Origin: a virus
Lineage: Duplodnaviria; Caudoviricetes
DNA length: 64,000 bases
Reading direction: 5' to 3' (one strand)
IMG/VR virus record: IMGVR_UViG_3300017766_004544
Location: 1 to 64,000 of that record
Positions within the stretch are counted from its first letter, which is position 1; each line of letters starts with the position of its first letter. The notes beneath the pieces were generated by a model, which did not search any database, had not been told where the DNA came from, and saw nothing but the letters and a program-made list of their open reading frames with translations. The translations under genes and the position numbers were made by a program. Below, in pieces: positions 4,773 through 17,379 of this stretch.

Positions 4773-5378
4773 GTGCTGCAGTTCAACTCCGCCCTCCTGG
4801 CTGCCGTCGGCTCCTTCACGGGGCCCTACGCGCCTTACCAGTCCGTGCATCTACGCCCCCACTGCGGCGGGGTGCTCCTTGCGGCCAGTGATCACGGCAA
4901 GGTGACGGCCATTGGCTTTGACCGCATGGGCACTGCCGATGAGTCCATCACCATCATCCCCAGCCCGGAACTGCTCAAGGCCAGCAGTGGCATCAAGACC
5001 GCCGAGCGGGGCATCGTCATCGATGGCGAGACGGCTACGGTCACCACCTACTACAAGACCAGCAGCAACAACGGCAAACAGCTGCCCGTCCAGCACAGCA
5101 TCACCCCCTTCCCGGACATCGATGGCGCCCTGGCGGCCTGCGTGCAGCGCTGGAGCGCCACCCCATCGCTCAGTGAAACCGCTGGCCGGTACCGCGTCGC
5201 CTACCTCGAGCGCGCCATCAAGGCCGCCGGACTGCTGGCTGATTCGCTCGTGCTCTCCGCCTTCGATGGCGGGCCGCTGCGGATCCAAGGCGAGACCCTC
5301 GAGCTGATCATCCTGGTCATGCCGCAGACCGCTGAGCCGATTCCAGCCCTGCCCGACTGGGTCCAGCATTTCGGCTGA
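4773..5378 (+). CDS. DNA polymerase III beta-clamp-like protein (remote, truncated)
   Basis: LAASDHGK, FPDIDG, YLERAIKA, GGPLRI, LVMP resemble conserved beta-clamp segments; lies upstream of the SSBs. Confidence 0.5.
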   Translation: MLQFNSALLAAVGSFTGPYAPYQSVHLRPHCGGVLLAASDHGKVTAIGFDRMGTADESITIIPSPELLKASSGIKTAERGIVIDGETATVTTYYKTSSNNGKQLPVQHSITPFPDIDGALAACVQRWSATPSLSETAGRYRVAYLERAIKAAGLLADSLVLSAFDGGPLRIQGETLELIILVMPQTAEPIPALPDWVQHFG

Positions 5379-5436: not shown

Positions 5437-6099
5437 GTGAGCACCGCAACTCTTGTTGTGGCCTTGGCGGCGCAACCTGCCGAAACCGTCGCGCACGGCA
5501 AGCAGGTCCTGGAAGTCTTTGCCACTACCAATGGCAAGGATCAGGTTCCTGTTTTATTGCGTTGCGCGTCTGGCAGCAAGACAGCCGAGGCCCTAAAGAC
5601 CAAGACCGCAGGCCAGACCCTGATCATCGCTGGTGATCTTCTTCTAGAAGACAGCCAGACGGTTGTGTTCATCCACACCCTCTGCGATGTCTCCCCCGAC
5701 GCCTACGTCAACCAAGTCACAGTCACCGGTCGCCTTGCCAAAGAGGCCCGGGTCGCCGAGTCCAACAAGTCCGCCTCTCGCTCGCTGGCCATCAATCGCA
5801 TGGTCAATGGCGAAGAGGTGACCGACTGGTTCACCCTGCGTGGCTACGGCTACGTCATGGACCGGCTGATCGCCCTGCCCGTCGGCACCCTGGCCATGGT
5901 CGAGGGCACCCTCGATCTACGCACCAACCGCGAGGGCAAGCCCTACTGCGAAGTCAAGGGACGCTCGATCCGTGCCTTTGAGCGCGGGCGCGGGAACAAG
6001 GGCACCAGCAACCCCGCCGCTGGCACGAAAGCCGTGGGATACGACCACGAGGACTTCGTTAACACCGCCGACAACATGCCCTGCGACTGGAACAACTAA
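5437..6099 (+). CDS. ssb: Single-stranded DNA-binding protein, two tandem OB folds
   Basis: NQVTVTGRLAKE, TDWFTLRGYG, VEGTL...EVKG; similar N-terminal OB half. Confidence 0.75.
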   Translation: MSTATLVVALAAQPAETVAHGKQVLEVFATTNGKDQVPVLLRCASGSKTAEALKTKTAGQTLIIAGDLLLEDSQTVVFIHTLCDVSPDAYVNQVTVTGRLAKEARVAESNKSASRSLAINRMVNGEEVTDWFTLRGYGYVMDRLIALPVGTLAMVEGTLDLRTNREGKPYCEVKGRSIRAFERGRGNKGTSNPAAGTKAVGYDHEDFVNTADNMPCDWNN

Positions 6100-6117
6100 C
6101 CACCTTCTGACATAACC

Positions 6118-6819
6118 ATGGGATTCCTTCCGACCGACTACCGCCCGACCTCTGGAACCACCGAAAGCAGCGACACCAAGCGCAACCGTTACTTCGACCC
6201 CGGCAAGCGACTCAAGGACGGCGAGTCCACCACCTTCCGCCTCTGCGGCCTCCACGACACCGGTCACGTGATCGCCGGCTGGTCCTACTTCACGATGGAC
6301 GGCCAGCCCCGCAAGTTCCCCAAGTACCCCGAGAACTTCGCCGAGGAGATCGGCCTGACCTGGGCCGGCAAGACCAATGGCACCGGCGAAAAGGACAAGC
6401 CCCGCTACTTCCTGTCCTTCGTCGGACTCTCCAAAGAGGACGACGACTACCTGATCTACACCTTCCAGCGCAAGGACCTGCGGGTGCAGCTCGAGGAGGT
6501 CCTGGCCCTCGAGGACTACCAGATCCTGCCCTCGGGCGTGGCCAACTTCTACCTGACGCTCAAGCGCAAGGGCATCGAGACGAACACGTCCTACACCTTG
6601 ACCCCCACGCTCAAGGTGCCCACCAAGGCCGAAGAGAAGCGCTGGAGTGAGGTCGCTGACTCCATCTGGCTGCCTGCCGTGTACGTCAACGGCGACCCCT
6701 TCTCTGGGAAGCCCAACGCTGGCCGCCCCGAAGGACTGCCCCCGACCCACCGCGACGACCTAGGCGCCGACCACGAAGTGGCAACCGTTACGGCAGAAGC
6801 CATGCCAGCAGGCTGGTGA
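6118..6819 (+). CDS. Phage gp32-like ssDNA-binding protein
   Basis: YF..K.LKDGESTTFRL and LKRKGIETNTSYTLTP are typical of phage gp32-like SSBs. Confidence 0.6.
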   Translation: MGFLPTDYRPTSGTTESSDTKRNRYFDPGKRLKDGESTTFRLCGLHDTGHVIAGWSYFTMDGQPRKFPKYPENFAEEIGLTWAGKTNGTGEKDKPRYFLSFVGLSKEDDDYLIYTFQRKDLRVQLEEVLALEDYQILPSGVANFYLTLKRKGIETNTSYTLTPTLKVPTKAEEKRWSEVADSIWLPAVYVNGDPFSGKPNAGRPEGLPPTHRDDLGADHEVATVTAEAMPAGW

Positions 6820-6880
6820 TTCGCCTCCCTTAGATGCAGTAGCACTGCATCTTGCTTCTCATCTGCTGCCATTGTCCTCA

Positions 6881-6910
6881 CCCTTCCGCCTCTCCTGGCG
6901 GAAGGGGTTT
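6881..6910 (+). terminator. Rho-independent terminator
   Basis: CCCTTCCGCC-tctcct-GGCGGAAGGG-gttt. Confidence 0.75.
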
Positions 6911-7008
6911 ATGCATGTGCCGCATAATGCAGCAGTGATGACTATGCGTCTTATGCATAGAGTCCAGGCAGTCCGGCTTCGGCGCAATCTGCAGCACACG
7001 CCCGTGTA

Positions 7009-7293
7009 CTATTTGGGCCCTTCGCGACGAGCAGTCAGTGCCGCCAGCAGCTTGTCAGAAGACTCTGGCGACCATGGCTGCCCGGCCAAGTTCTTAGCCG
7101 CTTCTCTCGCCAAGAAGCGCAATGCGGACGGGTAGGTGACCATCACCTGCTGTGCCATTTGTTTGGCGATTTCTCGAAGCTCTGCTTCGTTGGCTCGATC
7201 CAGCGCATTCACAAATTGCGCTAGCCGTAACTGCTCGCCAACAGTTGGCTCCAGCCCGTCATCCATCCCACGCTCCGGGTGTGCATTGCTCAT
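7009..7293 (-). CDS. NblA-like protein (divergent)
   Basis: PTVGEQLRLAQFVNALDRANEAELREIAKQMAQQVM fits the NblA L-T-x-EQ two-helix pattern. Confidence 0.45.
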   Translation of the reverse strand: MSNAHPERGMDDGLEPTVGEQLRLAQFVNALDRANEAELREIAKQMAQQVMVTYPSALRFLAREAAKNLAGQPWSPESSDKLLAALTARREGPK

Positions 7294-7327
7294 GCCGGGG
7301 CTTGCAAGTTGTTTACTTACGCTAACG

Positions 7328-7570
7328 ATGCCCGCTACTGCTGACCACGCCCTTGCCTCCGTTGCGGCCCACTATCAGCAGGCCATGAAAAGAACCACGC
7401 CCTTCGCGCAATCGGAGTCTGGCGATCTCTTTTTGCTCGCGCCCCTGCCTGATATACCAGAGGCTGATCAGCGGGCAGCGCTGGCTCATCTCGTAAGCCT
7501 TGGCGTACTGAGCGTCTACCGATACATTGACGCTAAGCCCCAGCCCGCGATCCTTGCCGTCCGCGCCTGA
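7328..7570 (+). CDS. Hypothetical protein
   Basis: Start ATG 7328. Confidence 0.45.
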   Translation: MPATADHALASVAAHYQQAMKRTTPFAQSESGDLFLLAPLPDIPEADQRAALAHLVSLGVLSVYRYIDAKPQPAILAVRA

Positions 7571-7778
7571 CCCTCAGATCCTCGAGGAGCTCTGCGCGGC
7601 TCGCAATAGCAGGGATGTCGCCGCGATCCAGCAGCGGCATGAAGCCCAGGACGTCCATGAGGCCTGGCCCCATGTCCCCTATGTCCAACGCTGCGCCCTG
7701 CTACTGGCTCGCGCCCTCCAAGGAGAAATCTTTCATGACCTCACTGCCTCCGACTTCGGAGAATCTGACCCTCTTTGA
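7527..7778 (+). CDS. Hypothetical protein
   Basis: 83-aa ORF in operon. Confidence 0.5.
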   Translation: MTLSPSPRSLPSAPDPQILEELCAARNSRDVAAIQQRHEAQDVHEAWPHVPYVQRCALLLARALQGEIFHDLTASDFGESDPL

Positions 7779-8172
7779 CACCAGCAAGCTCCTGCTGGCC
7801 GAGCTGCAAACAACCAACCGGCTGCTGATCAAGGCACTGGAGGGTCAGCGCATGCACACCGATCAGCTGGAGAACCTGACCTACCTGGTCAATGGCTTCA
7901 CCTCGGGCGGGGCGTCCTTCTCCGCCTATCAGTGCGACCAGATGACCCTGGCCTACCTGGCGCTGATGGGCCCGCTCCTGGCCCAGCGCATGGACATGGG
8001 CGTCTCCGACATCAACGAACTGATCAAGGGCGGCACCCTACTTGCCCGCCAGCTACTCGACGAACTCTCGGCCTACCGCTCGCAGCAGGGCAGTTACGAC
8101 TACCTCGAGGAGCAGACCGAACTGATCAACGACCCCTGGAACCAGAGCGAAGCTGCAAGCGAGGAGTCATGA
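7735..8172 (+). CDS. Hypothetical protein
   Basis: ATG 7735 preceded by AGGAGA. Confidence 0.7.
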   Translation: MTSLPPTSENLTLFDTSKLLLAELQTTNRLLIKALEGQRMHTDQLENLTYLVNGFTSGGASFSAYQCDQMTLAYLALMGPLLAQRMDMGVSDINELIKGGTLLARQLLDELSAYRSQQGSYDYLEEQTELINDPWNQSEAASEES

Positions 8173-8471
8173 CCAATTACGTCTGCACCATCACCCAGGT
8201 CACGATCCACCGCCTGGGTGACAACCCCCTGACCACACCGGAAGCCACGGTCATCTCCCTCGATGACATGGGCGGCGGCTTCTTTGTCTCCGTCAAGCAG
8301 GACTCCCAGGGCAGCGAGGGCCACATCCTGCTCGATCCAGAGGAGCTGCCCATGCTTCAAGAGGCAGCCCAGATCCTGCTTCACCAGGACTCCCTCGGCC
8401 TGCCCCCAGCCGGCAGCACCCTCACGCCCGAGGAACGAGCCCTCTGCCTCGAGGCACTCCGTCATGAGTAG
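8169..8471 (+). CDS. Conserved phage hypothetical protein
   Basis: VISLDDMGGGFFVSVKQ...LDPEEL; ATGA overlap. Confidence 0.7.
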   Translation: MTNYVCTITQVTIHRLGDNPLTTPEATVISLDDMGGGFFVSVKQDSQGSEGHILLDPEELPMLQEAAQILLHQDSLGLPPAGSTLTPEERALCLEALRHE

Positions 8472-8730
8472 CCCGCTCGAGATCTACCGGTACTGGCGGG
8501 CTATGCAGGATGCGCATATTGCTTATCAGGACACCAAGACGGCGCTATTCATCATTGCCAGGGACAACGCCGGCATGACCAGCCTGGTGGATGCCGATGG
8601 CTGCCGCTGGAAGGTCAACGTCGGCTACGGACCCTCCCCCATCGTCACGGTGCAGGCCATTGCCCACTTGAGTGATACCAAGGGCGTTCCTGGGGCAGCG
8701 TCTGACGGCCCAGACGAGAGCGCCAAATAG
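8464..8730 (+). CDS. Hypothetical protein
   Basis: ATG 8464, coupled overlap. Confidence 0.55.
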   Translation: MSSPLEIYRYWRAMQDAHIAYQDTKTALFIIARDNAGMTSLVDADGCRWKVNVGYGPSPIVTVQAIAHLSDTKGVPGAASDGPDESAK

Positions 8731-8777
8731 ACATCACGTAGCAACTCGTTACATTACATACAGCAGCATGCTGGTGA

Positions 8778-9566
8778 GTGAGTGTCGCTACACGTTTTGA
8801 GGTAGACGGCACTCGCTTCTACAGGTCCGGCGACGACCCCAACAAGGCCTACGCCTCGGTCACCGCGATCCTCGGCAAGACAGCATCAGAGCACAGCAAG
8901 AAAGCGCTCTACAACTGGGGCCTGAAGAACCCGGGTGGCAAGGAAGCGGCTGCTGCTCGAGGTACCGCCGTGCACTACGCCTGTGAGCGTTACATCCGCG
9001 GCCTGCCCACCGAGATCCCCGACGAATACCGTCCGTTCTGGGATGGTCTGGCCAAGCATCTCGACAAGTACGACTACTTCCTGTGGAGTGAAAAGCCTCT
9101 GCGCCCAGAGTGGAAGTTCTGCTCCGGCGATGATGGCATCCATCGCATCTGGTCCCATGAGCATGGCTATGCCGGCTGCCCGGACCTAGTCGGTGTCCGC
9201 AATGGCGTCACGATCCTGGCTGACTTCAAGACATCCAACCAGCCGTACTGCCGCTTCTACCCCAAGGAGAAGGATCGCAGCAACTTCACCGGCTGGAACA
9301 AGTTCAACAAGTGCTCTGTCCAGTTAGCGGCCTACGCCCTGGCCTGCAAGGAAACCCTGGATCTCAAGATCGACTGCGCTCAGATCCTGGTCTCCACGCC
9401 TGAGATCGATCAATCCTTCTACCTCCATGGCGACGACCTGGTGCACTACCGCATCAAGTGGCTGCAGAAAGTCCGCAAGTACTACGAACTGATCGAGCAG
9501 GAAAAGCTTGAGCGTGAACAGCAGGAATCCATGGCCGGCGACTGCAAGATCCTTCAGTCCGCCTGA
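8778..9566 (+). CDS. PD-(D/E)XK exonuclease (Cas4/lambda-exo-like)
   Basis: SVTAIL, RGTAVH, YAGCPDL, ADFKTS, QLAAYA motifs. Confidence 0.88.
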   Translation: MSVATRFEVDGTRFYRSGDDPNKAYASVTAILGKTASEHSKKALYNWGLKNPGGKEAAAARGTAVHYACERYIRGLPTEIPDEYRPFWDGLAKHLDKYDYFLWSEKPLRPEWKFCSGDDGIHRIWSHEHGYAGCPDLVGVRNGVTILADFKTSNQPYCRFYPKEKDRSNFTGWNKFNKCSVQLAAYALACKETLDLKIDCAQILVSTPEIDQSFYLHGDDLVHYRIKWLQKVRKYYELIEQEKLEREQQESMAGDCKILQSA

Positions 9567-9616
9567 TAGGCCGCCAGGCAGGGAATTCCTAGACTTCGTA
9601 GACATGCAGCATTTGG

Positions 9617-9934
9617 ATGCTGTCGACACAAACCAGGCTGCGCGTTGAATTCATCTGCGATCGAATTGCCAAGGGAGCCGCAGTCGAACTCAGCGACATG
9701 ACCTGGCTGCAGAAGCTGGCTTCCCTGAATCCCACTGTCGACAGCTGGCTGCGCAAGGCACGCCGCTCGGCCATCCAAGGCGATTCACAGGAGGGCAGCC
9801 TCGATGCCTTTTGCCAGGCCCTCGACCTGGGCGAACCCGACCCCAGCGATCACTTGGTTGGACCTCAAGATCCGACCACCCTCGCGAACTGGTTCAGTAG
9901 CAAGCAGAAGTGGTTCCGCGGCCAGGCGGGTTAA
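9617..9934 (+). CDS. Conserved cyanobacterial/cyanophage hypothetical protein
   Basis: MLSTQTRLRVEFICDRIAKG...WLQKLA...WLRKARR. Confidence 0.8.
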   Translation: MLSTQTRLRVEFICDRIAKGAAVELSDMTWLQKLASLNPTVDSWLRKARRSAIQGDSQEGSLDAFCQALDLGEPDPSDHLVGPQDPTTLANWFSSKQKWFRGQAG

Positions 9935-11358
9935 CGGAAGAACAGTCCCCCGGCTTCGCTGATCCCCAGATCAGGCACCGTGAACCCGCCGATCTTCCAG
10001 CGGCCGCCACGCCGACGTGCCGCCTCTGCTCTGAGCAGCTGGGGGTCCGCGCTTGGACCCTGGGCGCCGAAGGCACCGGGGTCTTGATGGCGCTCAACAG
10101 CAACCTGACGGCGCGACGGCTTGCTACTGCCACCCAGCTGAGAGACGACCGCTACGGGGTTGGCGGTACGCACAGCTCCAGCGGCAATGGGCAGAGCTTT
10201 CGACGCGACCTGAGGTGCCATGCGCTGCAGGGTCCCTGTTCCCAGACCCACTAGAGGGGCTGCAAGGGTCCCAGCCAGGTATTCCTTAGCTACCTGCTCT
10301 CCCGCCTTGCGGACGTTTCCAGTCTCAACGGCATTGCGAAATTCTGGGTCAAACAATGGGACGGATCCGGCGATATCCGTCGTGGCAGTAGCCCCGGTTC
10401 GGACCGCGCCAGTCAACCGGCTCAAGTCGCGTGCACTTCTGGCCTCAGCCGCTTGATCCAGCACTTGTCGCAGGGCAGCGGGCGATTCCAGGACTCGCGG
10501 GGCAATCCGAGCTGGAGGATTCGACAGCGCACCCACCCTGTCCTTGTATGGGAAGAACTCCTCGTCGGCCCATCCACGACCCACGTTGACTTGGCCCTGC
10601 ATGGCCGCATCCGATAGGTCGGCAGCATGAATCATTCCATCGGTCACGCCACGCTGCGGGCGATACTGACCCTTGGCTACCGCATCGTCGTAGCCCTTGC
10701 GCAAGGCAGTCGCAAAGTCTTCCCCTCTAGTCCTGGCAGTATTGACATCCTCTGGCGACACCTCTCTTGTATTGCGTAGGTCGACAGATGGCATGAACCC
10801 TTGCGCAGGGTCGTACCCACCAGCTCCTTGAAAGAAGGTATAGTCACCCTTACTGAAACGATCCTCCGCAACCTTCATCAGTCTGCTGAGATCTGCTTGC
10901 TGAGCCGTTATCTTCTGAGCAACGGCTGCATCCCATCCATATTCACCTCCAGCCTCGAAGTCATCCGGTGTCGCTCCCATGCTGACGGCGCGATCTCTGC
11001 GCTGATCGAAGTGATTCTTGTCCTCCATCCCCCCGTAGTTCACGAACGAGCTTGGCCTAGCGTCACCAGCTTCGCCTGAGACGCCTTCCCTGTAGCTCGG
11101 AGGGCTCCCATGGATTGCTCCGGAACCATAGAGCTTGTCAAAAGCTGCATGGTCGTGAACATTCTGAAGCAGCTCTCCGTAAATAGTGGCCGGAATATTG
11201 CCACGGCGATGCCCTGCATCGTGCAATGGAAATGGTGCGTTCTCCAGGGGAGGCTGCACATCGAGGCCGTATGGCTCGACGAACTCACCAGCCAACCCCA
11301 TGATGTCCACTGAGCGCACGCGACGAGCACGATCTAGCGCTTCTTCCCGACCAGGCAC
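9931..11358 (-). CDS. Putative internal virion protein
   Basis: 475-aa A/G-rich ORF, late orientation, TAGGAT box upstream. Confidence 0.65.
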   Translation of the reverse strand: MPGREEALDRARRVRSVDIMGLAGEFVEPYGLDVQPPLENAPFPLHDAGHRRGNIPATIYGELLQNVHDHAAFDKLYGSGAIHGSPPSYREGVSGEAGDARPSSFVNYGGMEDKNHFDQRRDRAVSMGATPDDFEAGGEYGWDAAVAQKITAQQADLSRLMKVAEDRFSKGDYTFFQGAGGYDPAQGFMPSVDLRNTREVSPEDVNTARTRGEDFATALRKGYDDAVAKGQYRPQRGVTDGMIHAADLSDAAMQGQVNVGRGWADEEFFPYKDRVGALSNPPARIAPRVLESPAALRQVLDQAAEARSARDLSRLTGAVRTGATATTDIAGSVPLFDPEFRNAVETGNVRKAGEQVAKEYLAGTLAAPLVGLGTGTLQRMAPQVASKALPIAAGAVRTANPVAVVSQLGGSSKPSRRQVAVERHQDPGAFGAQGPSADPQLLRAEAARRRGGRWKIGGFTVPDLGISEAGGLFFR

Positions 11359-11418
11359 TACAGGACTTATTGCACTCTGCCCATCCTAAGAAGCCCACTA
11401 CAGCCAGGAACTTTGGGC

Positions 11419-11706
11419 TCACCAGCTCCAGTTACAGCTCCAATAGCCCGGCGTAGTCCTGTCGTTTTTCTCTGTGCAGTTGTGCCTTCTCTTGAAGTCC
11501 TCCCTTCGCTCTTCATCGCCGTGCCCGCCTTCGCCGCGAGGGCCATTGCGGTAGTTCTCCATGCTTGGATCACCAAACCTGACGATCTTGTCCTCTCCCT
11601 CATCGTCCTTGACCAGGACTGCAAACTTCTTGCTGTCGCCCGGGGTGCGCTTGGGCTTGTTGTAGCCCTGGAAGACTTCGCCGGCGTATCGGATTGACTC
11701 AGCCAT
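11419..11706 (-). CDS. Small conserved viral protein
   Basis: KKFAVLV..VRFGD..RRHNC..GYWSC pattern widespread in phage genomes. Confidence 0.8.
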   Translation of the reverse strand: MAESIRYAGEVFQGYNKPKRTPGDSKKFAVLVKDDEGEDKIVRFGDPSMENYRNGPRGEGGHGDEERREDFKRRHNCTEKNDRTTPGYWSCNWSW

Positions 11707-12146
11707 CAGACCGCCCCCGCATAGTTTGCCTGCTCTACTTCGGCCCTTGGCTGACTTAATGCAGAAAGTGCATACACCCCACCCAGTGCGGCCAGAGCAG
11801 GGAGCCCATACCGCATGGCCATGCGTCTACCGCTTGGCGCCTGCGGGACCGGTGCTACCTCCAGCTCCTCTACCGCGGCTTGCGCAGCAGCCAGCGCAGG
11901 CAGCGTGGAATACAGCGGCCTTGCGCCCCAGGCCCGATTGCGAGCATTCTCCGGCTCAGGATTCTTAGATCTGACCGCGCCGTAGACCTGCCGCTGCGCA
12001 GACTGCACGGCATCTTCGTGCTCGATCCCCAGCTGCCTGGCCTTGGCATAGGCCAGCGAATAGTTGTACCGGGCTGGATCCAGCGGGTAGTCCCAGTCCA
12101 GCTCCGCCGCCTCGCCCGTCCAGCCCCAGCTGCCTAGAGGATCCAT
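11706..12146 (-). CDS. Hypothetical protein with C-terminal hydrophobic helix
   Basis: 146-aa ORF. Confidence 0.6.
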   Translation of the reverse strand: MDPLGSWGWTGEAAELDWDYPLDPARYNYSLAYAKARQLGIEHEDAVQSAQRQVYGAVRSKNPEPENARNRAWGARPLYSTLPALAAAQAAVEELEVAPVPQAPSGRRMAMRYGLPALAALGGVYALSALSQPRAEVEQANYAGAV

Positions 12147-12556
12147 CAGCCGTTGCCCTCTTTCTTCGGTATCGCTCGACGACGCTCGCCAACGTACCGA
12201 CCGTGTCGATAATTGGGGTGCCTTTCTCCGCGCTCCTCCCTGAGCCTGTTCCAGTCAAAACTATTTGAGCTCTTGTCGCCTAAATACAGATTAGATACGC
12301 AGTTGTTAAGTGGATCATCATCTTTGTGACAGACCAGAACCTCCTTCTCTTCTGGGTTCAAGCCTAGATAGGTGACGGCAACGAGACGATGCACCGTGCA
12401 GCGCACCTTCCGACCTAGGCCAACCATCAGATACCCCTTGTTACTTGCCATCACCCACGGCTTCAAGGGCTCAGTCTTTCCCTTGCGACGCACCGACCCT
12501 CGTGACGAGACCTCGTATCCCAGGTGGAGAGGGCAGTCCTTCCAAGTCTCGCGCAT
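12146..12556 (-). CDS. NUMOD4-HNH endonuclease
   Basis: ETWKDCP..GYEVSSRG..GY..VHRLVA..CHKDDDPLNNCVSNL. Confidence 0.88.
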   Translation of the reverse strand: MRETWKDCPLHLGYEVSSRGSVRRKGKTEPLKPWVMASNKGYLMVGLGRKVRCTVHRLVAVTYLGLNPEEKEVLVCHKDDDPLNNCVSNLYLGDKSSNSFDWNRLREERGERHPNYRHGRYVGERRRAIPKKEGNG

Positions 12557-12684
12557 CACTTCTTACCCTCCTTCTGAGGCACACAGGCTGGCACCTTCCT
12601 GCCGTCCTTCTGCTTGAAGCCGATCGCCTCGTAGCCCTTCCAGCAGGCTTCCTTGAGTTTGTCGCCAGCTTTGCGTACGGCCAT
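12556..12684 (-). CDS. 42-aa basic microprotein (CWKGY..G.K.K.GRKVP.CVP motif)
   Basis: Manual translation MAVRKAGDKLKEACWKGYEAIGFKQKDGRKVPACVPQKEGKK; TGATG overlap with HNH; not in ORF track. Confidence 0.8.
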   Translation of the reverse strand: MAVRKAGDKLKEACWKGYEAIGFKQKDGRKVPACVPQKEGKK

Positions 12685-12686
12685 CG

Positions 12687-13100
12687 TCAGCTATACAGCA
12701 AGGGCGCAGTCATGCCAGACGACGGGAATGCACGCAGGCGATACTCTTCCAGTTGCGCATCACGCTCCCGCTCCTCGCCCACCACGTCACGGATGACCGG
12801 CATGTTCGAGTAGTCGCCATCTTGTGCTCCGTCGTAGAGCAGGTCCATGGCGACAGAACCCAGGCCACCGGGACCTTCCGCTTTCTGCAGGAAGCCAGGG
12901 AGTTCCTGGCCACCATCTGGATTGCGGAGCAGTCGCTGGCGCAGCCTCTCTTTCATGACTGGATCATTCGCATTGGGGATCCCCTCGAGATCCCGGCCCG
13001 GAATCTTCGGGTAGCCCAAATCGAAGCTGGGTGAACGTGCCACCAACTCAGCCATCGTTGCTGGGTCTCCGTACCCCAAAGCAGTCCCAGCTGTACGCAC
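12687..13100 (-). CDS. Hypothetical (putative virion) protein
   Basis: 137-aa ORF; TAGACT box upstream. Confidence 0.55.
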   Translation of the reverse strand: MRTAGTALGYGDPATMAELVARSPSFDLGYPKIPGRDLEGIPNANDPVMKERLRQRLLRNPDGGQELPGFLQKAEGPGGLGSVAMDLLYDGAQDGDYSNMPVIRDVVGEERERDAQLEEYRLRAFPSSGMTAPLLYS

Positions 13101-13142
13101 TGTGCTACTGATGCATTACTCGTAGTCTAAAGATCTACTGGA

Positions 13143-13721
13143 CTACTTCCCTCCAAGCATCTGACTCATTACGTCATCCATCACAGGTGAGAACTGTCCC
13201 TGTCCCGCCATCTTGGTTCTGCCGCCGAATGGATCAAGGCCGATCTCCCAGGCAGTGCCGCCTGTTCGGTTAATCCCTAGAGACGCCTCACGCAGCTGTT
13301 TCTCCCTGGCAGCGCGCACTCGCTCGAGAGCCCCAGGATTCGCCTCGAGGTACTGGGCATACTCAGGGTCCACCTGCGCAGCGTCCCCTGCTACTTGCAC
13401 TGAGCTCAAGTTGGGGACATTGATCTTCTTGAACCCAATGAACGCACTCGGCCCACCCTCGCCATACCCACCACGCAGCTCCAGCCGATTCCCGTCGGTG
13501 GCGTCGCCGACCGGGATCACTGCACGGCCCGTGACTGACTGGGTATCAACGTCGTAGCCAGCACTGAGATCAGTGCCGTACTGGTTCTTGTAACTCAACG
13601 CCGGAGCAATTCCCTGCTGCATCTGACCAGGCGGGGCTGCACCATTACCCATGCCGGGCGGCAGCATTCCACCCTTCCGCGGCAGCGTCAGCGGATCGAA
13701 CATGCCAGCAGGAGCACCCAT
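13143..13721 (-). CDS. Hypothetical (putative virion) protein
   Basis: 192-aa ORF; TAGACT box 23 nt upstream. Confidence 0.65.
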   Translation of the reverse strand: MGAPAGMFDPLTLPRKGGMLPPGMGNGAAPPGQMQQGIAPALSYKNQYGTDLSAGYDVDTQSVTGRAVIPVGDATDGNRLELRGGYGEGGPSAFIGFKKINVPNLSSVQVAGDAAQVDPEYAQYLEANPGALERVRAAREKQLREASLGINRTGGTAWEIGLDPFGGRTKMAGQGQFSPVMDDVMSQMLGGK

Positions 13722-13928
13722 TAGTCACGGCCTTATTACTTTCAGTCTATAAACTCTCGTTAGCATTTCTCTAGCAGCGGCGCACAACAGCTTGTGCATT
13801 CGCTGTCACCTGGGCACCGTGTGTGCTCATGAGATCCCGGCGTCACCAGGCCCGGGGTCTCATCGCCATGCCCAGCAGAGCCTCTCGCTGGCAGTGAGAA
13901 CAATTATCGCTCTCCCATAAAAGCCCAT

Positions 13929-13958
13929 AAAAAAGGCGGACCCCACCACAGAGTCCGC
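13929..13958 (-). terminator. Terminator after repressor
   Basis: Minus strand GCGGAC-loop-GTCCGC-CTTTTTT. Confidence 0.6.
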
Positions 13959-13997
13959 ACTGGTTCTTTCGCAAGCAAACCATACCACGCAAACAGC

Positions 13998-14627
13998 TCA
14001 CCCGATTGCCGTCCGCTTCGTGAAGGCCTCAATCACCGCAGCCTTCTGGTAGTTGCAGGCAATCCCAAAGGCCTCGGCCAGCTCCTCCTCGAATTCACCC
14101 GTGGTTGCCAGCAGCTTCAGGGCTTCGTCCGTTAGACCCAGCCGCTCACGGAACAGATCGCTGACACCCGCATCCTTGAGCTCTTCGATCGGCCACGTAT
14201 AGAGCGCGGGGCTCGCTACTTCAGCTTCTTTATGCGCCTGCAGCGATCCATCGACCCATCGCTCGCCGGCATCTTTTAGCGATGCCAGCAAACGAGGCAG
14301 ATCCAGCTGACCGGCCTCACTGCGGATCCAGCTCTCCACCTGCTCCACGCTGACCTCCGTGACGTATTTACCCGTCTGGTAGAAGGCATACAAGGCATCC
14401 AGCGTGACGCCCAGCTCCTGGGCCAGGAGCGCCTGGATACCAAGGCCCACGCGCAAGGGAGCGATATCGCCCCGCAGGTACTTGGTCAGTGAGCCGATTG
14501 TCACGTCGATCTTCGAGCACAGCCCCCGCTGGCTGAGCTGGCCGGACACCATCGCCTGGTTCAGGCAGCTAATGAATCGCTCGATTTGCTGCTTCTCGAT
14601 CGGCGTATGCGGGACGACCTTGGCCAT
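13998..14627 (-). CDS. XRE-family HTH regulator (repressor-like)
   Basis: LSQRGLCSKIDVTIGSLTKYLRG..LAQELGVTLDAL; divergent from primase. Confidence 0.75.
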   Translation of the reverse strand: MAKVVPHTPIEKQQIERFISCLNQAMVSGQLSQRGLCSKIDVTIGSLTKYLRGDIAPLRVGLGIQALLAQELGVTLDALYAFYQTGKYVTEVSVEQVESWIRSEAGQLDLPRLLASLKDAGERWVDGSLQAHKEAEVASPALYTWPIEELKDAGVSDLFRERLGLTDEALKLLATTGEFEEELAEAFGIACNYQKAAVIEAFTKRTAIG

Positions 14628-14844
14628 AGCTTCCCCCTTGGTTTTCGTACCTTACATATGCGTCGCAAGCTGTGCCGCACCGTATGCAAGTTCGTCATGC
14701 GTACGGCACAAACCCAGTCGTAGCCTGCTATTTCGTCCGGCACACAGTGCGCATACCGTCGCTCGGCGCTTGCGCGACAAGGCTTGCGTGAGGCGCTAGT
14801 GTGCGCGCCACTGCAGTCACGCCGCAAACCTGCAGGTCATCCGC

Positions 14845-17379
14845 ATGTCATCAGCCTCTCCCATCTGCTTCTCTGTTCACCCCTCGATCCGCAACAAGCC
14901 TCTCCACTGGCAGAACGACTTCGCCGCCAACTGGCAGTCCCGCGAAGGCTCCCTCCAGGACCTGCGTGATCATGTCACTGCCGGAGGTGCGTTCATCTCG
15001 GCGGCGATGAGCTCACAACACCGCAGTTCTGCTGCATTTCGCTACGCAGATCTGGCCGTCGTAGACGTCGACAACGGTCTCGATCTTGACGCCTTCCGCG
15101 CCCACCCCCTGGCAACCCATGCCTGCTTCGTCTACACCACGCACAGCCACCGCGACGACGCCCCTCGCTACCGGGTCATCTTCCGGTTGCCCAGGCGCAT
15201 GGACGATCCGGACCTCTACAAGGCCATCGTCACCATCTTGACCACGGCCCTGGGCGGCGACAAATCCTGCACCGATCCCTGCCGCCTGTTCTACGGCGCT
15301 GACAACGCCCAGGTCCCGCTCTGGCAGCCCGAGGCCCTGTTGCCCGACTCGATCATCCAGGACGCCAGGACCCAGGCCGAAGTCGCCTCTGCTCGTCACC
15401 GCCTAGACGCCTCCCTCTACGACGATCAGACCATCGGCCAGGCCTGCCATGTCCTGGAGCAGGTCCTCACACCCACAGAAGATGGCGAGCGCGATCGCTT
15501 CATCAAGGTGACCGCTGCAGCCTGCTCCGGCGGAGAGGCCGTGTTCCCGGCCTGGCAGAACTGGGCTTCCCGCTGCCATCACACCAGTGGCTACCGCAGC
15601 AAGCAGGGCACCGAGCGCTTCTTCTATTCCTTCCGCAATACCCGCTCCAGCCTGCTGACCCTCTTCTATCTGGCCATGCAGGAGGATCCCAGCTGGACCA
15701 AGACCCTGCCGGACGAGCTGCGCCAGAGCGCGTTTGCTCCACCCAAGAACCATGGTGCCGTTGGCTACGACCATGAGGACTTCCTCCATGGCGGCCAGGA
15801 CTCTCCCTATTCCTGGGATACGGGCCTGATCGATCCCAGTCCGCAAGCCGCCGACAACACGCCTGGGCTCTTTGATGCTGAGCGCCCCTGGTCGGCTATC
15901 GCAGCACCGCCGCCAGTACGGGCGCGCACCGCCGCACCGGCAGCTCCTCGCCTCGCTCCCCACGATCCGCTCGAGCTCCTCGATCCAGGCGACGACGACG
16001 AGGACCCCTTTGACGACGACAACGACCCCGGCTTCCAGTTCATCGATGGCGGCCATGTCCCGCCCGAGGATCGCCGTCCCGATCGCCCCGTCCCCGATGT
16101 CCCTCGCCGCAGGGGGAACGGCAACGTCCCGGAAGACACCGTTCGCGTCATCCGCGACCGCCTCAATGCCCTCTACCCGGGCCTGCGCCGCAACATGATG
16201 AATCAGGAGCTTGAGTACGGCCCGCTCGACTCGCCCCGGATTGTCGACGACATCACCACCGCCTACTGCCGCATCAGCCTCGGCACCGGCACCGTCTATC
16301 CCAAGACCACGGTGATCGATATCGCGGGCATCACCGCCTGGGAGAACCGCGTCCACCCCGTGCAGGCCTACCTCACCCACTGCGCCGGCACGGCCGAACC
16401 CTGCCCCTACTTCAAGACCCTGGCCAGCGAACTGCTGGGTCTTAAGGCGGATCCCCTGCTGAACCCATGTTTCACCCGTGGCCCCGAGAAGGGCCGGCTG
16501 CTGGCGGACGTGGTGCTCGAGCGCTTCCTGGTGGGCGCTGTCGCCCGTGTGCTCTCACCCGGCTGCGCGCATGACTGGATGCCGATCCTGATTGGCTCCC
16601 AGAACTGCGGCAAGACCAACTTCTTCCAATACATCACGCCCCCCTCGCCCTCGGATCCAGGCGTCTACCCCTGGGTCGCCACGATCCAGCAGGGGATCCG
16701 CGGCATCAAGGAGAAGCCCCACCTGCTCCATGCCGGCTGGTTTGTTGTCCTCGATGAGACCGAGCGCTACTTCCAGCGGGGCTACGTCGAGGAACTCAAG
16801 AACCTGGTCTCGGTGCCGGTGGATCGCTCCGCCCGCAAATACGAGAACGAGCGCAACTTCATGCGGGCCTTCGTGCTCTGCGGGGCCACCAACAGCGATG
16901 ACTTCTTCGTGGACCCCACCGGCAACAGGCGCTTCATGCCGATCGTCGTAGCCGGCAAGGTGCCCAGCCCGGACGACCCCAGCACCTTGATCATTGATCT
17001 CGACCGTCTCAAGCAAGACCGCGATGGGATCTGGGCAGCGGCCTACATGGCCTACCAGGACAACCCCGTCCACAACTTCAGCAGCGACGAGCTCAAGCAG
17101 ATCCGCGAGTACCAGGAGAACTTCCGCGTCGATAACCCCTTTGACGCCCGAATCCGCAGCGCCCTGAGCATCCGCCACTCGGGCGTCCACCAGGGCCGCA
17201 GCTTTGTCGTCCTCAGCGACCTGTACGAGTGGCTCGAGATCCCGGTCGATCGCCATAACAGCGTGAGGACCGCCATCACCGACACCCTTAAGAGCCTTGG
17301 CTACCAGCTCAAGCGGGTACGGATTGGGGGTGAGGCGCGGCGCATCTGGACGAAACCCGACGAGGGCATCGCCGCCTGA
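14845..17379 (+). CDS. Primase-helicase: AEP/primpol N-term, PriCT-like domain, acidic linker, VapE/VirE P-loop ATPase
   Basis: VVDVDNG, YTTHSH..PRYRVIF, DPCRLFYG; GSQNCGKT Walker A, VVLDE Walker B, DPTGNRRF. Confidence 0.9.
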   Translation: MSSASPICFSVHPSIRNKPLHWQNDFAANWQSREGSLQDLRDHVTAGGAFISAAMSSQHRSSAAFRYADLAVVDVDNGLDLDAFRAHPLATHACFVYTTHSHRDDAPRYRVIFRLPRRMDDPDLYKAIVTILTTALGGDKSCTDPCRLFYGADNAQVPLWQPEALLPDSIIQDARTQAEVASARHRLDASLYDDQTIGQACHVLEQVLTPTEDGERDRFIKVTAAACSGGEAVFPAWQNWASRCHHTSGYRSKQGTERFFYSFRNTRSSLLTLFYLAMQEDPSWTKTLPDELRQSAFAPPKNHGAVGYDHEDFLHGGQDSPYSWDTGLIDPSPQAADNTPGLFDAERPWSAIAAPPPVRARTAAPAAPRLAPHDPLELLDPGDDDEDPFDDDNDPGFQFIDGGHVPPEDRRPDRPVPDVPRRRGNGNVPEDTVRVIRDRLNALYPGLRRNMMNQELEYGPLDSPRIVDDITTAYCRISLGTGTVYPKTTVIDIAGITAWENRVHPVQAYLTHCAGTAEPCPYFKTLASELLGLKADPLLNPCFTRGPEKGRLLADVVLERFLVGAVARVLSPGCAHDWMPILIGSQNCGKTNFFQYITPPSPSDPGVYPWVATIQQGIRGIKEKPHLLHAGWFVVLDETERYFQRGYVEELKNLVSVPVDRSARKYENERNFMRAFVLCGATNSDDFFVDPTGNRRFMPIVVAGKVPSPDDPSTLIIDLDRLKQDRDGIWAAAYMAYQDNPVHNFSSDELKQIREYQENFRVDNPFDARIRSALSIRHSGVHQGRSFVVLSDLYEWLEIPVDRHNSVRTAITDTLKSLGYQLKRVRIGGEARRIWTKPDEGIAA

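Follow-up and report, generated by a model that had tools for sequence, protein, structure and literature searches.

Two short conserved boxes in three replication proteins of a phage: putative docking peptides and their candidate readers

The C-terminal tip of bacterial SSB (a protein that binds single-stranded DNA), D-D-D-[IL]-P-F, is an interaction hub and a precedent for docking through a protein end, and the tail swap between gp4 and gp2.5 of phage T7 is a second well-known case. In T7, the acidic tail of gp2.5 docks on the polymerase, and a tail peptide of gp4 was used as the docking template (PMC12339929). In T4, the C-termini with which gp43, gp33 and gp55 bind the clamp are carried by variable linkers and can replace one another (PMC2988020), and the consensus of beta-clamp-binding peptides is QL(S/D)LF, of which L-F alone can bind (PMC11139829). 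In this study, we analysed 64,000 nucleotides of a Caudoviricetes phage (hereafter the window, positions 1 to 64,000 of IMGVR_UViG_3300017766_004544), taken from a complete virus record of 82,229 bp with direct terminal repeats, a CheckV completeness of 100% and 61.6% GC. Three of its replication proteins, a bacterial-type SSB, a second single-stranded DNA (ssDNA)-binding protein with a gp32-like fold and a primase-helicase, carry similar short peptides, which are probably lineage-specific linear docking peptides kept by purifying selection in disordered tails and a disordered linker.

The SSB gene lies at 5437..6099 (220 amino acids), the gp32-like gene at 6118..6819 (233 amino acids) and the primase-helicase gene at 14845..17379 (844 amino acids), all on the plus strand. 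A preliminary description of this DNA had reported a single motif, G-x-D-H-E-x9-P-x-x-W, in all three products, and nucleotides 6037-6090, 6763-6816 and 15763-15816 do translate to three such 18-residue strings, each within a long plus-strand open reading frame (ORF). A search of all six frames with G.DHE.{9}P..W, in the window as well as in the complete genome (82,229 bp), returned exactly these three matches, against a chance expectation of 7.7e-4 from the six-frame residue frequencies. At the DNA level the three copies share only 43-54% identity over 84 nucleotides, and the nine residues common to SSB and primase are encoded with different synonymous codons at three positions (Val, Gly, His); thus the similarity resides at the protein level, as had been proposed, and a DNA repeat or recent copy is ruled out. 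The 18-residue pattern itself, however, did not hold up as a single code: it is kept in 5/29 SSB, 4/35 primase-helicase and 11/72 gp32-like orthologs, which rules it out as the conserved unit, and both the fixed nine-residue spacing and the P..W half in the primase are restricted to this phage and its closest relatives.

These counts come from 22 SSB orthologs (47-97% identity), 69 gp32-like orthologs (43-92%) and 35 primase-helicase orthologs (40-95% over the linker region), to which copies on related contigs were added, giving 29, 72 and 35 sequences, respectively. On these alignments, what endures is a pair of separable boxes that are distributed differently. Box A, G-Y-(D/E)-H-E-D-F anchored by Gly, Tyr and Phe, appears as the element common to the SSB tail (GYDHEDF, 6037..6057, plus strand) and the primase linker (GYDHEDF, residues 307-313, 15763..15783, plus strand), and box B, M-P-x(1-5)-W at the C-terminus or at most two residues from it, as the element common to SSB (MPCDW, 6076..6090, plus strand, followed by two residues and the stop) and the gp32-like protein (MPAGW, 6802..6816, plus strand, its last residues). 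All SSB orthologs (29/29) and all primase orthologs (35/35) contain G-Y-x4-[FY], the latter mostly keeping His and Glu too, and every SSB ortholog (29/29) has M-P-x(1-5)-W no more than three residues from its C-terminus. G201, Y202, F207, M214, P215 and W218 of SSB are invariant in an alignment of 26 orthologs. In the gp32-like family, Trp falls within the last four residues of 71/72 orthologs and the full M-P-x(1-5)-W is found in 48/72, and a variant of box A (GADHEVA, 6763..6783, plus strand) follows G-A-D-x-[ED] in 71/72, with G216, A217 and D218 invariant in 38 aligned sequences. The primase has a box-B-like SPYSW (15802..15816, plus strand), and P..W after box A occurs in just 4/35 orthologs, the closest relatives, the others having a D-P-F-type element or no aromatic element at all. 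Column conservation is 0.8-0.99 in the boxes and 0.1-0.5 in the surrounding spacers, and the spacer between the boxes ranges from ~3 to 27 residues. The claim of selection on the protein is therefore upheld in the form of conserved islands within variable, indel-rich tails and linkers, and the expectation that the motif would be conserved in orthologs holds for the two boxes, while the 18-residue pattern survives in few of them.

The boxes are kept across relatives that span 40% to 64% GC, and also in loci whose primases are just 40% identical. Relatives at 40-42% GC (vs 62% here) retain the trio of clamp-like, SSB and gp32-like genes together with the tails; in these the sequences have diverged, with G-Y-E-P-S-A-F or G-Y-D-H-D-Q-F as box A of SSB, D-M-P-x-S-x-S-W as its tip and I-G-S-D-W-V, without M-P, as the gp32-like tip, and the primases still have G-Y-D-H-E-D-F. 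No covariation between SSB box A and primase box A was evident across eight genomes, the primase copy being simply the more constrained. When the box A heptapeptide was back-translated and searched in IMG/VR, 14 exact matches were obtained, comprising 9 primase linkers, 1 SSB tail and 4 unrelated ORFs. Within 14 genomes or loci, boxes A and B are confined to the three families with two exceptions, one ORF of this genome with low GC at third codon positions (GC3) and a chance M-P-x-x-W at the C-terminus of one primase. In the literature searched, we met no account of the motif or of SSB tails ending in Trp.

The SSB belongs to PF00436, scoring 30.1 bits (cut-off 26) over residues 91-163, and both of its boxes lie in the disordered C-terminal tail. 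An N-terminal extension of ~85 amino acids (window 5437-5700) precedes the PF00436 domain; it is conserved, and is absent in the most divergent ortholog (L009). The primase-helicase is of the PrimPol/VapE kind: primase PHROGs match residues 17-163 and PF05272 matches residues 554-761 (6e-38, 130.9 bits), so that it combines an N-terminal primase domain (archaeo-eukaryotic type by PHROG) with a VapE/D5-like helicase, separated by a low-complexity linker of ~150 amino acids. Its 18-residue copy is internal, at residues 307-324 of 844. A second peptide of the same linker, T-P-G-L-F-D-x-x-R-P-W (residues 339-349, 15859..15891, plus strand), lies ~20-35 residues past box A and is kept as [SGC][LIV]F[DSEG] followed by an (R)PW-like element in 32/35 orthologs. 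By its residues this second peptide looks more like a beta-clamp-binding motif than box A or box B does, being similar in part to QL(S/D)LF without the Gln.

The 233-amino-acid protein has no Pfam or PHROG family at E<=0.01, and thus is no gp32 member at the sequence level; the preliminary description had nevertheless called it gp32-like, which is supported by its fold. Its AlphaFold2 (AF2) model, with a predicted local distance difference test score (pLDDT) of 78.6, matches the RB69/T4 gp32 core in Foldseek (E 2.5e-4) and aligns by VIA-align to 1gpc at Z 9.2 (162 residues, root-mean-square deviation (rmsd) 4.9) and to 2a1k_A at Z 9.0, the next unrelated entry reaching Z 4.6; as modelled, it has the gp32 core fold. 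In residues 43-50 (window 6244-6267), C43 is nearly invariant and H50 invariant among 38 sequences, with a consensus His at 46, and these three residues might replace the zinc site of T4 gp32. The last ten residues, 224-233, have pLDDT below 50 and are clearly disordered.

Several observations weigh against docking peptides shared by all three proteins. The gp32-like variant of box A lacks the Tyr and Phe that are invariant in SSB and primase, and its G-A-D sits in an invariant stretch, G-L-P-P-x-x-R-D-x-x-G-A-D, where AF2 gives the G-A-D-x-E element medium confidence (pLDDT ~61-65) and two short strands, so that it may instead be folded and distinct from the box A peptide. Owing to the low-GC drift of SSB box A and of the gp32-like tip, the three-protein resemblance is strongest in the phage's own subclade. 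In addition, box B fits none of the consensus sequences of the SSB C-terminal tip (SSB-Ct), the clamp-binding motif (CBM) and the PCNA-interacting peptide (PIP). The placement of all copies in disordered segments, as first described, fits the variable SSB tail, the primase linker and the gp32-like end, and is doubtful for G-A-D-x-E, which may be partly structured.

The alternative that survives best takes up the first of these points: G-A-D-H-E of the gp32-like protein would be a structured element whose likeness to box A is coincidental, the real sharings being box A between SSB and primase and box B between SSB and the gp32-like protein. The different invariant residues (G, A, D vs G, Y, F), the invariant stretch and the modelled strands argue for it. 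On the other hand, in all three families most members have His and Glu at equivalent positions, and the order and approximate spacing of the boxes are equal in SSB and the gp32-like protein. We regard this alternative as a serious one, although on balance somewhat improbable.

If the boxes are peptides that bind proteins, as the analogy with known tails suggests, the protein that reads them has to be sought among a few candidates, in the order of preference the phage's own half of a beta clamp, host replisome proteins, and the ssDNA clefts of the two binding proteins. The first is the adjacent 201-amino-acid product of 4773..5378 (plus strand), which the preliminary description had termed clamp-like and which proves to have a sliding-clamp fold. 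Its AF2 model has pLDDT 92.6; Foldseek returned 429 matches at E<=0.001, all of the 50 listed being sliding clamps or clamp complexes, and VIA-align gave Z 13.9 (170 residues, rmsd 3.2) to residues 136-400 of 6fvn_B and Z 13.3 to residues 125-366 of E. coli beta. A search of PDB sequences with the clamp profile gave nothing meaningful, and the family counts 38 representatives among 1.8 billion proteins, one member of which hits PF02767 (DNA_pol3_beta_2) at 6.5e-8. While DnaN forms a dimeric ring with three domains per protomer, the phage protein has only two domains, and from the model it is the fold equivalent of DnaN domains II-III. Short beta-like proteins of similar size are annotated in Rhodococcus, Burkholderia, Gordonia and other phages, thus the clamp itself is not new.

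It can be supposed that a putative client pocket, or another face, of this protein binds the Trp tips, box A or both, and that the protein thereby acts as toolbelt for a replisome relying on the host's polymerase. The client-pocket residues listed for E. coli beta all lie at positions 152-365 (PMC11139829), so that the phage protein matches the pocket-bearing half of the clamp, and its gene is directly upstream of the SSB and gp32-like genes in those relatives whose upstream gene was read. Shared terminal peptides are classically read by clamps (PMC2988020), and the beta pocket accommodates peptides that differ widely in composition, a W-L motif among them (PMC11139829). However, Q-phi-x-[LM]-[FL] fits neither box, six-frame profile search of the complete genome revealed no clamp loader, and the second primase peptide, with its better clamp-type [SG]-L-F-D in 32/35 orthologs, would already serve the pocket, which counts against a simple clamp-pocket reading of the boxes. 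We therefore hold the phage clamp to be a possible reader, with more doubt than confidence. An alternative candidate of the same module is the PD-(D/E)XK exonuclease encoded at 8778..9566 (plus strand; phrog_298 at 3.1e-32, PF12705 at 22.3 bits), whose position is conserved in related loci.

A host protein might read the boxes instead, in which case they would bring to phage forks either the cyanobacterial DNA polymerase III (Pol III) holoenzyme or some other component of the host's SSB interaction network. Six-frame profile searches of the complete genome detected no DNA polymerase of family A, B or C (PolA, PolB, Pol III alpha), PHROG and Pfam scans of the larger ORFs gave no polymerase either, and PolA is likewise absent from five relatives, one of them 95% complete. 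Unless the primase domain carries out the synthesis, the phage must thus depend on a borrowed polymerase, and the lack of a recognisable polymerase or clamp loader makes a host reader plausible. Primase box A is near-unchanged across very divergent phages, as for a slowly evolving host target, and box B follows the logic of the SSB-Ct tip, with a hydrophobic residue, Pro and a terminal aromatic residue. Against this, the primase domain might itself synthesise DNA, and the matches in genome collections are mis-binned contigs of metagenome-assembled genomes (MAGs) only. We consider a host reader rather unlikely, though worth keeping beside the clamp.

The scan of genome contigs for prophage copies recovered just three such MAG contigs, L038 and L039 with a Methanobacteriota label and L040 with a Pirellulales label; each encodes SSB, the gp32-like protein and primase with these boxes, GC3 is low in L038 and L039, and the three look like phage contigs mis-binned into unrelated MAGs. 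Compared with deposited phages, the primase-helicase matches through its helicase half only, with cyanophages S-2L and S-LBS1 at the top at 27-29% identity, and because these are the closest deposited primase-helicases, the phage looks like a cyanophage. The gp32-like and clamp-like proteins had zero matches by tblastn in 50,697 deposited phage records.

It is less likely again that the tails need no separate hub, being ssDNA mimics that fold back on the clefts of SSB and of the gp32-like protein as a form of self-regulation, with the primase copy binding the same clefts. Their composition is acidic and aromatic (Tyr, Phe, Trp), AF2 puts short strands of medium confidence at the gp32-like box A variant, and AlphaFold models of T7 gp2.5 place the tail in the protein's own DNA groove, from which it had to be removed for simulation (PMC12339929); mimicry by charge and aromatic residues, however, requires no invariant Gly, Met or Pro and no fixed order of boxes. 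Chance similarity or a recently copied DNA segment is highly improbable, since, even though the pattern was defined after being seen, the three matches far exceed expectation, the copies differ in DNA identity and synonymous codons as given above, and the elements are conserved in dozens of orthologs per family.

Returning to docking peptides under purifying selection, the boxes would act as acidic-aromatic peptides on flexible segments, through which the ssDNA-coating proteins and the enzyme responsible for unwinding and priming may contact a common surface, or common surfaces, on a partner and take over from each other. The different distributions of the two boxes point to two reading surfaces, and two readers are at least as likely as one. 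As a bolder and unlikely scheme, half a beta clamp may read a two-box code, G-Y-x4-F and the M-P-x-x-W tip, and so tie two ssDNA-binding proteins and a PrimPol-helicase to a captured host Pol III in a cyanophage clade devoid of polymerase; if true, such a half-clamp adaptor would be a new way for a phage to build a hybrid replisome. Shared docking peptides reveal how a replisome is wired, and in the present case they label three proteins from a clade of apparent cyanophages that is widespread, nearly uncultured and without a recognisable DNA polymerase of its own. The boxes are short and have clear anchors (Tyr, Phe, Trp), and knowing their reader would show how the phage primase-helicase and two ssDNA-binding proteins are coupled to borrowed host enzymes.

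Other genes of the module were also noted. Between the gp32-like and exonuclease genes, a protein encoded at 7615-8172 is conserved in all relatives examined and belongs to no Pfam or PHROG family; its true start is probably later, the orthologs having ~140-150 amino acids, and it shows D-P-W near an acidic C-terminus in high-GC relatives, an element absent from the low-GC clade. A small DUF3288 (PF11691) gene follows the primase-helicase in 4/4 related loci (L005 15675-15965, L035 12865-13197, L036 13036-13335, L037 13068-13361), and dCMP deaminase and ThyX genes lie farther downstream in these four loci, as in the window.

Compared with described systems, the boxes come closest to the T7 replisome tails, in which an acidic-aromatic peptide likewise occurs on an ssDNA-binding protein and a primase-helicase, in disordered segments and with an aromatic anchor at or near the C-terminus. 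While the T7 tails are both C-terminal, end in Phe and dock on the gp5 DNA polymerase, here the searches gave no phage polymerase, the primase carries its copy internally, there are two boxes and a terminal Trp, and two different ssDNA-binding proteins carry the tail; the set is thus not a shared tail of the T7 type. The ends read by the gp45 clamp of T4 and RB69 are also alike in that unrelated proteins end in a short hydrophobic-acidic peptide, borne on a linker that is variable and dispensable, the T4 reader being the clamp of the same genome (PMC2988020), whereas the sequences are unrelated and the candidate clamp here is a two-domain one of the beta type, with neither loader nor polymerase found. 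As in bacterial SSB-Ct, a disordered linker, an acidic stretch, a hydrophobic residue, Pro and an aromatic residue come together at the C-terminus of an OB-fold SSB; the tip, however, is M-P-x-x-W with 0-2 further residues in place of I-P-F-COOH (no [IL]-P-F-COOH end, and M-P-x(1-5)-W plus 0-2 residues in 29/29), box A is added upstream, and the tip also occurs on a protein of gp32 fold. Beta-clamp-binding motifs are similarly short linear motifs in tails or internal loops, bound in a pocket between DnaN domains II and III (PMC11139829), the half that this phage encodes, and boxes A and B match neither the CBM (Q-phi-x-[LM]-(x)-[FL]) nor the PIP (Q-x-x-[ILM]-x-x-[FY]-[FY]) consensus. Judged by such motif comparison, the system would work like those of T7, T4 and SSB-Ct and belongs to none of them by sequence.

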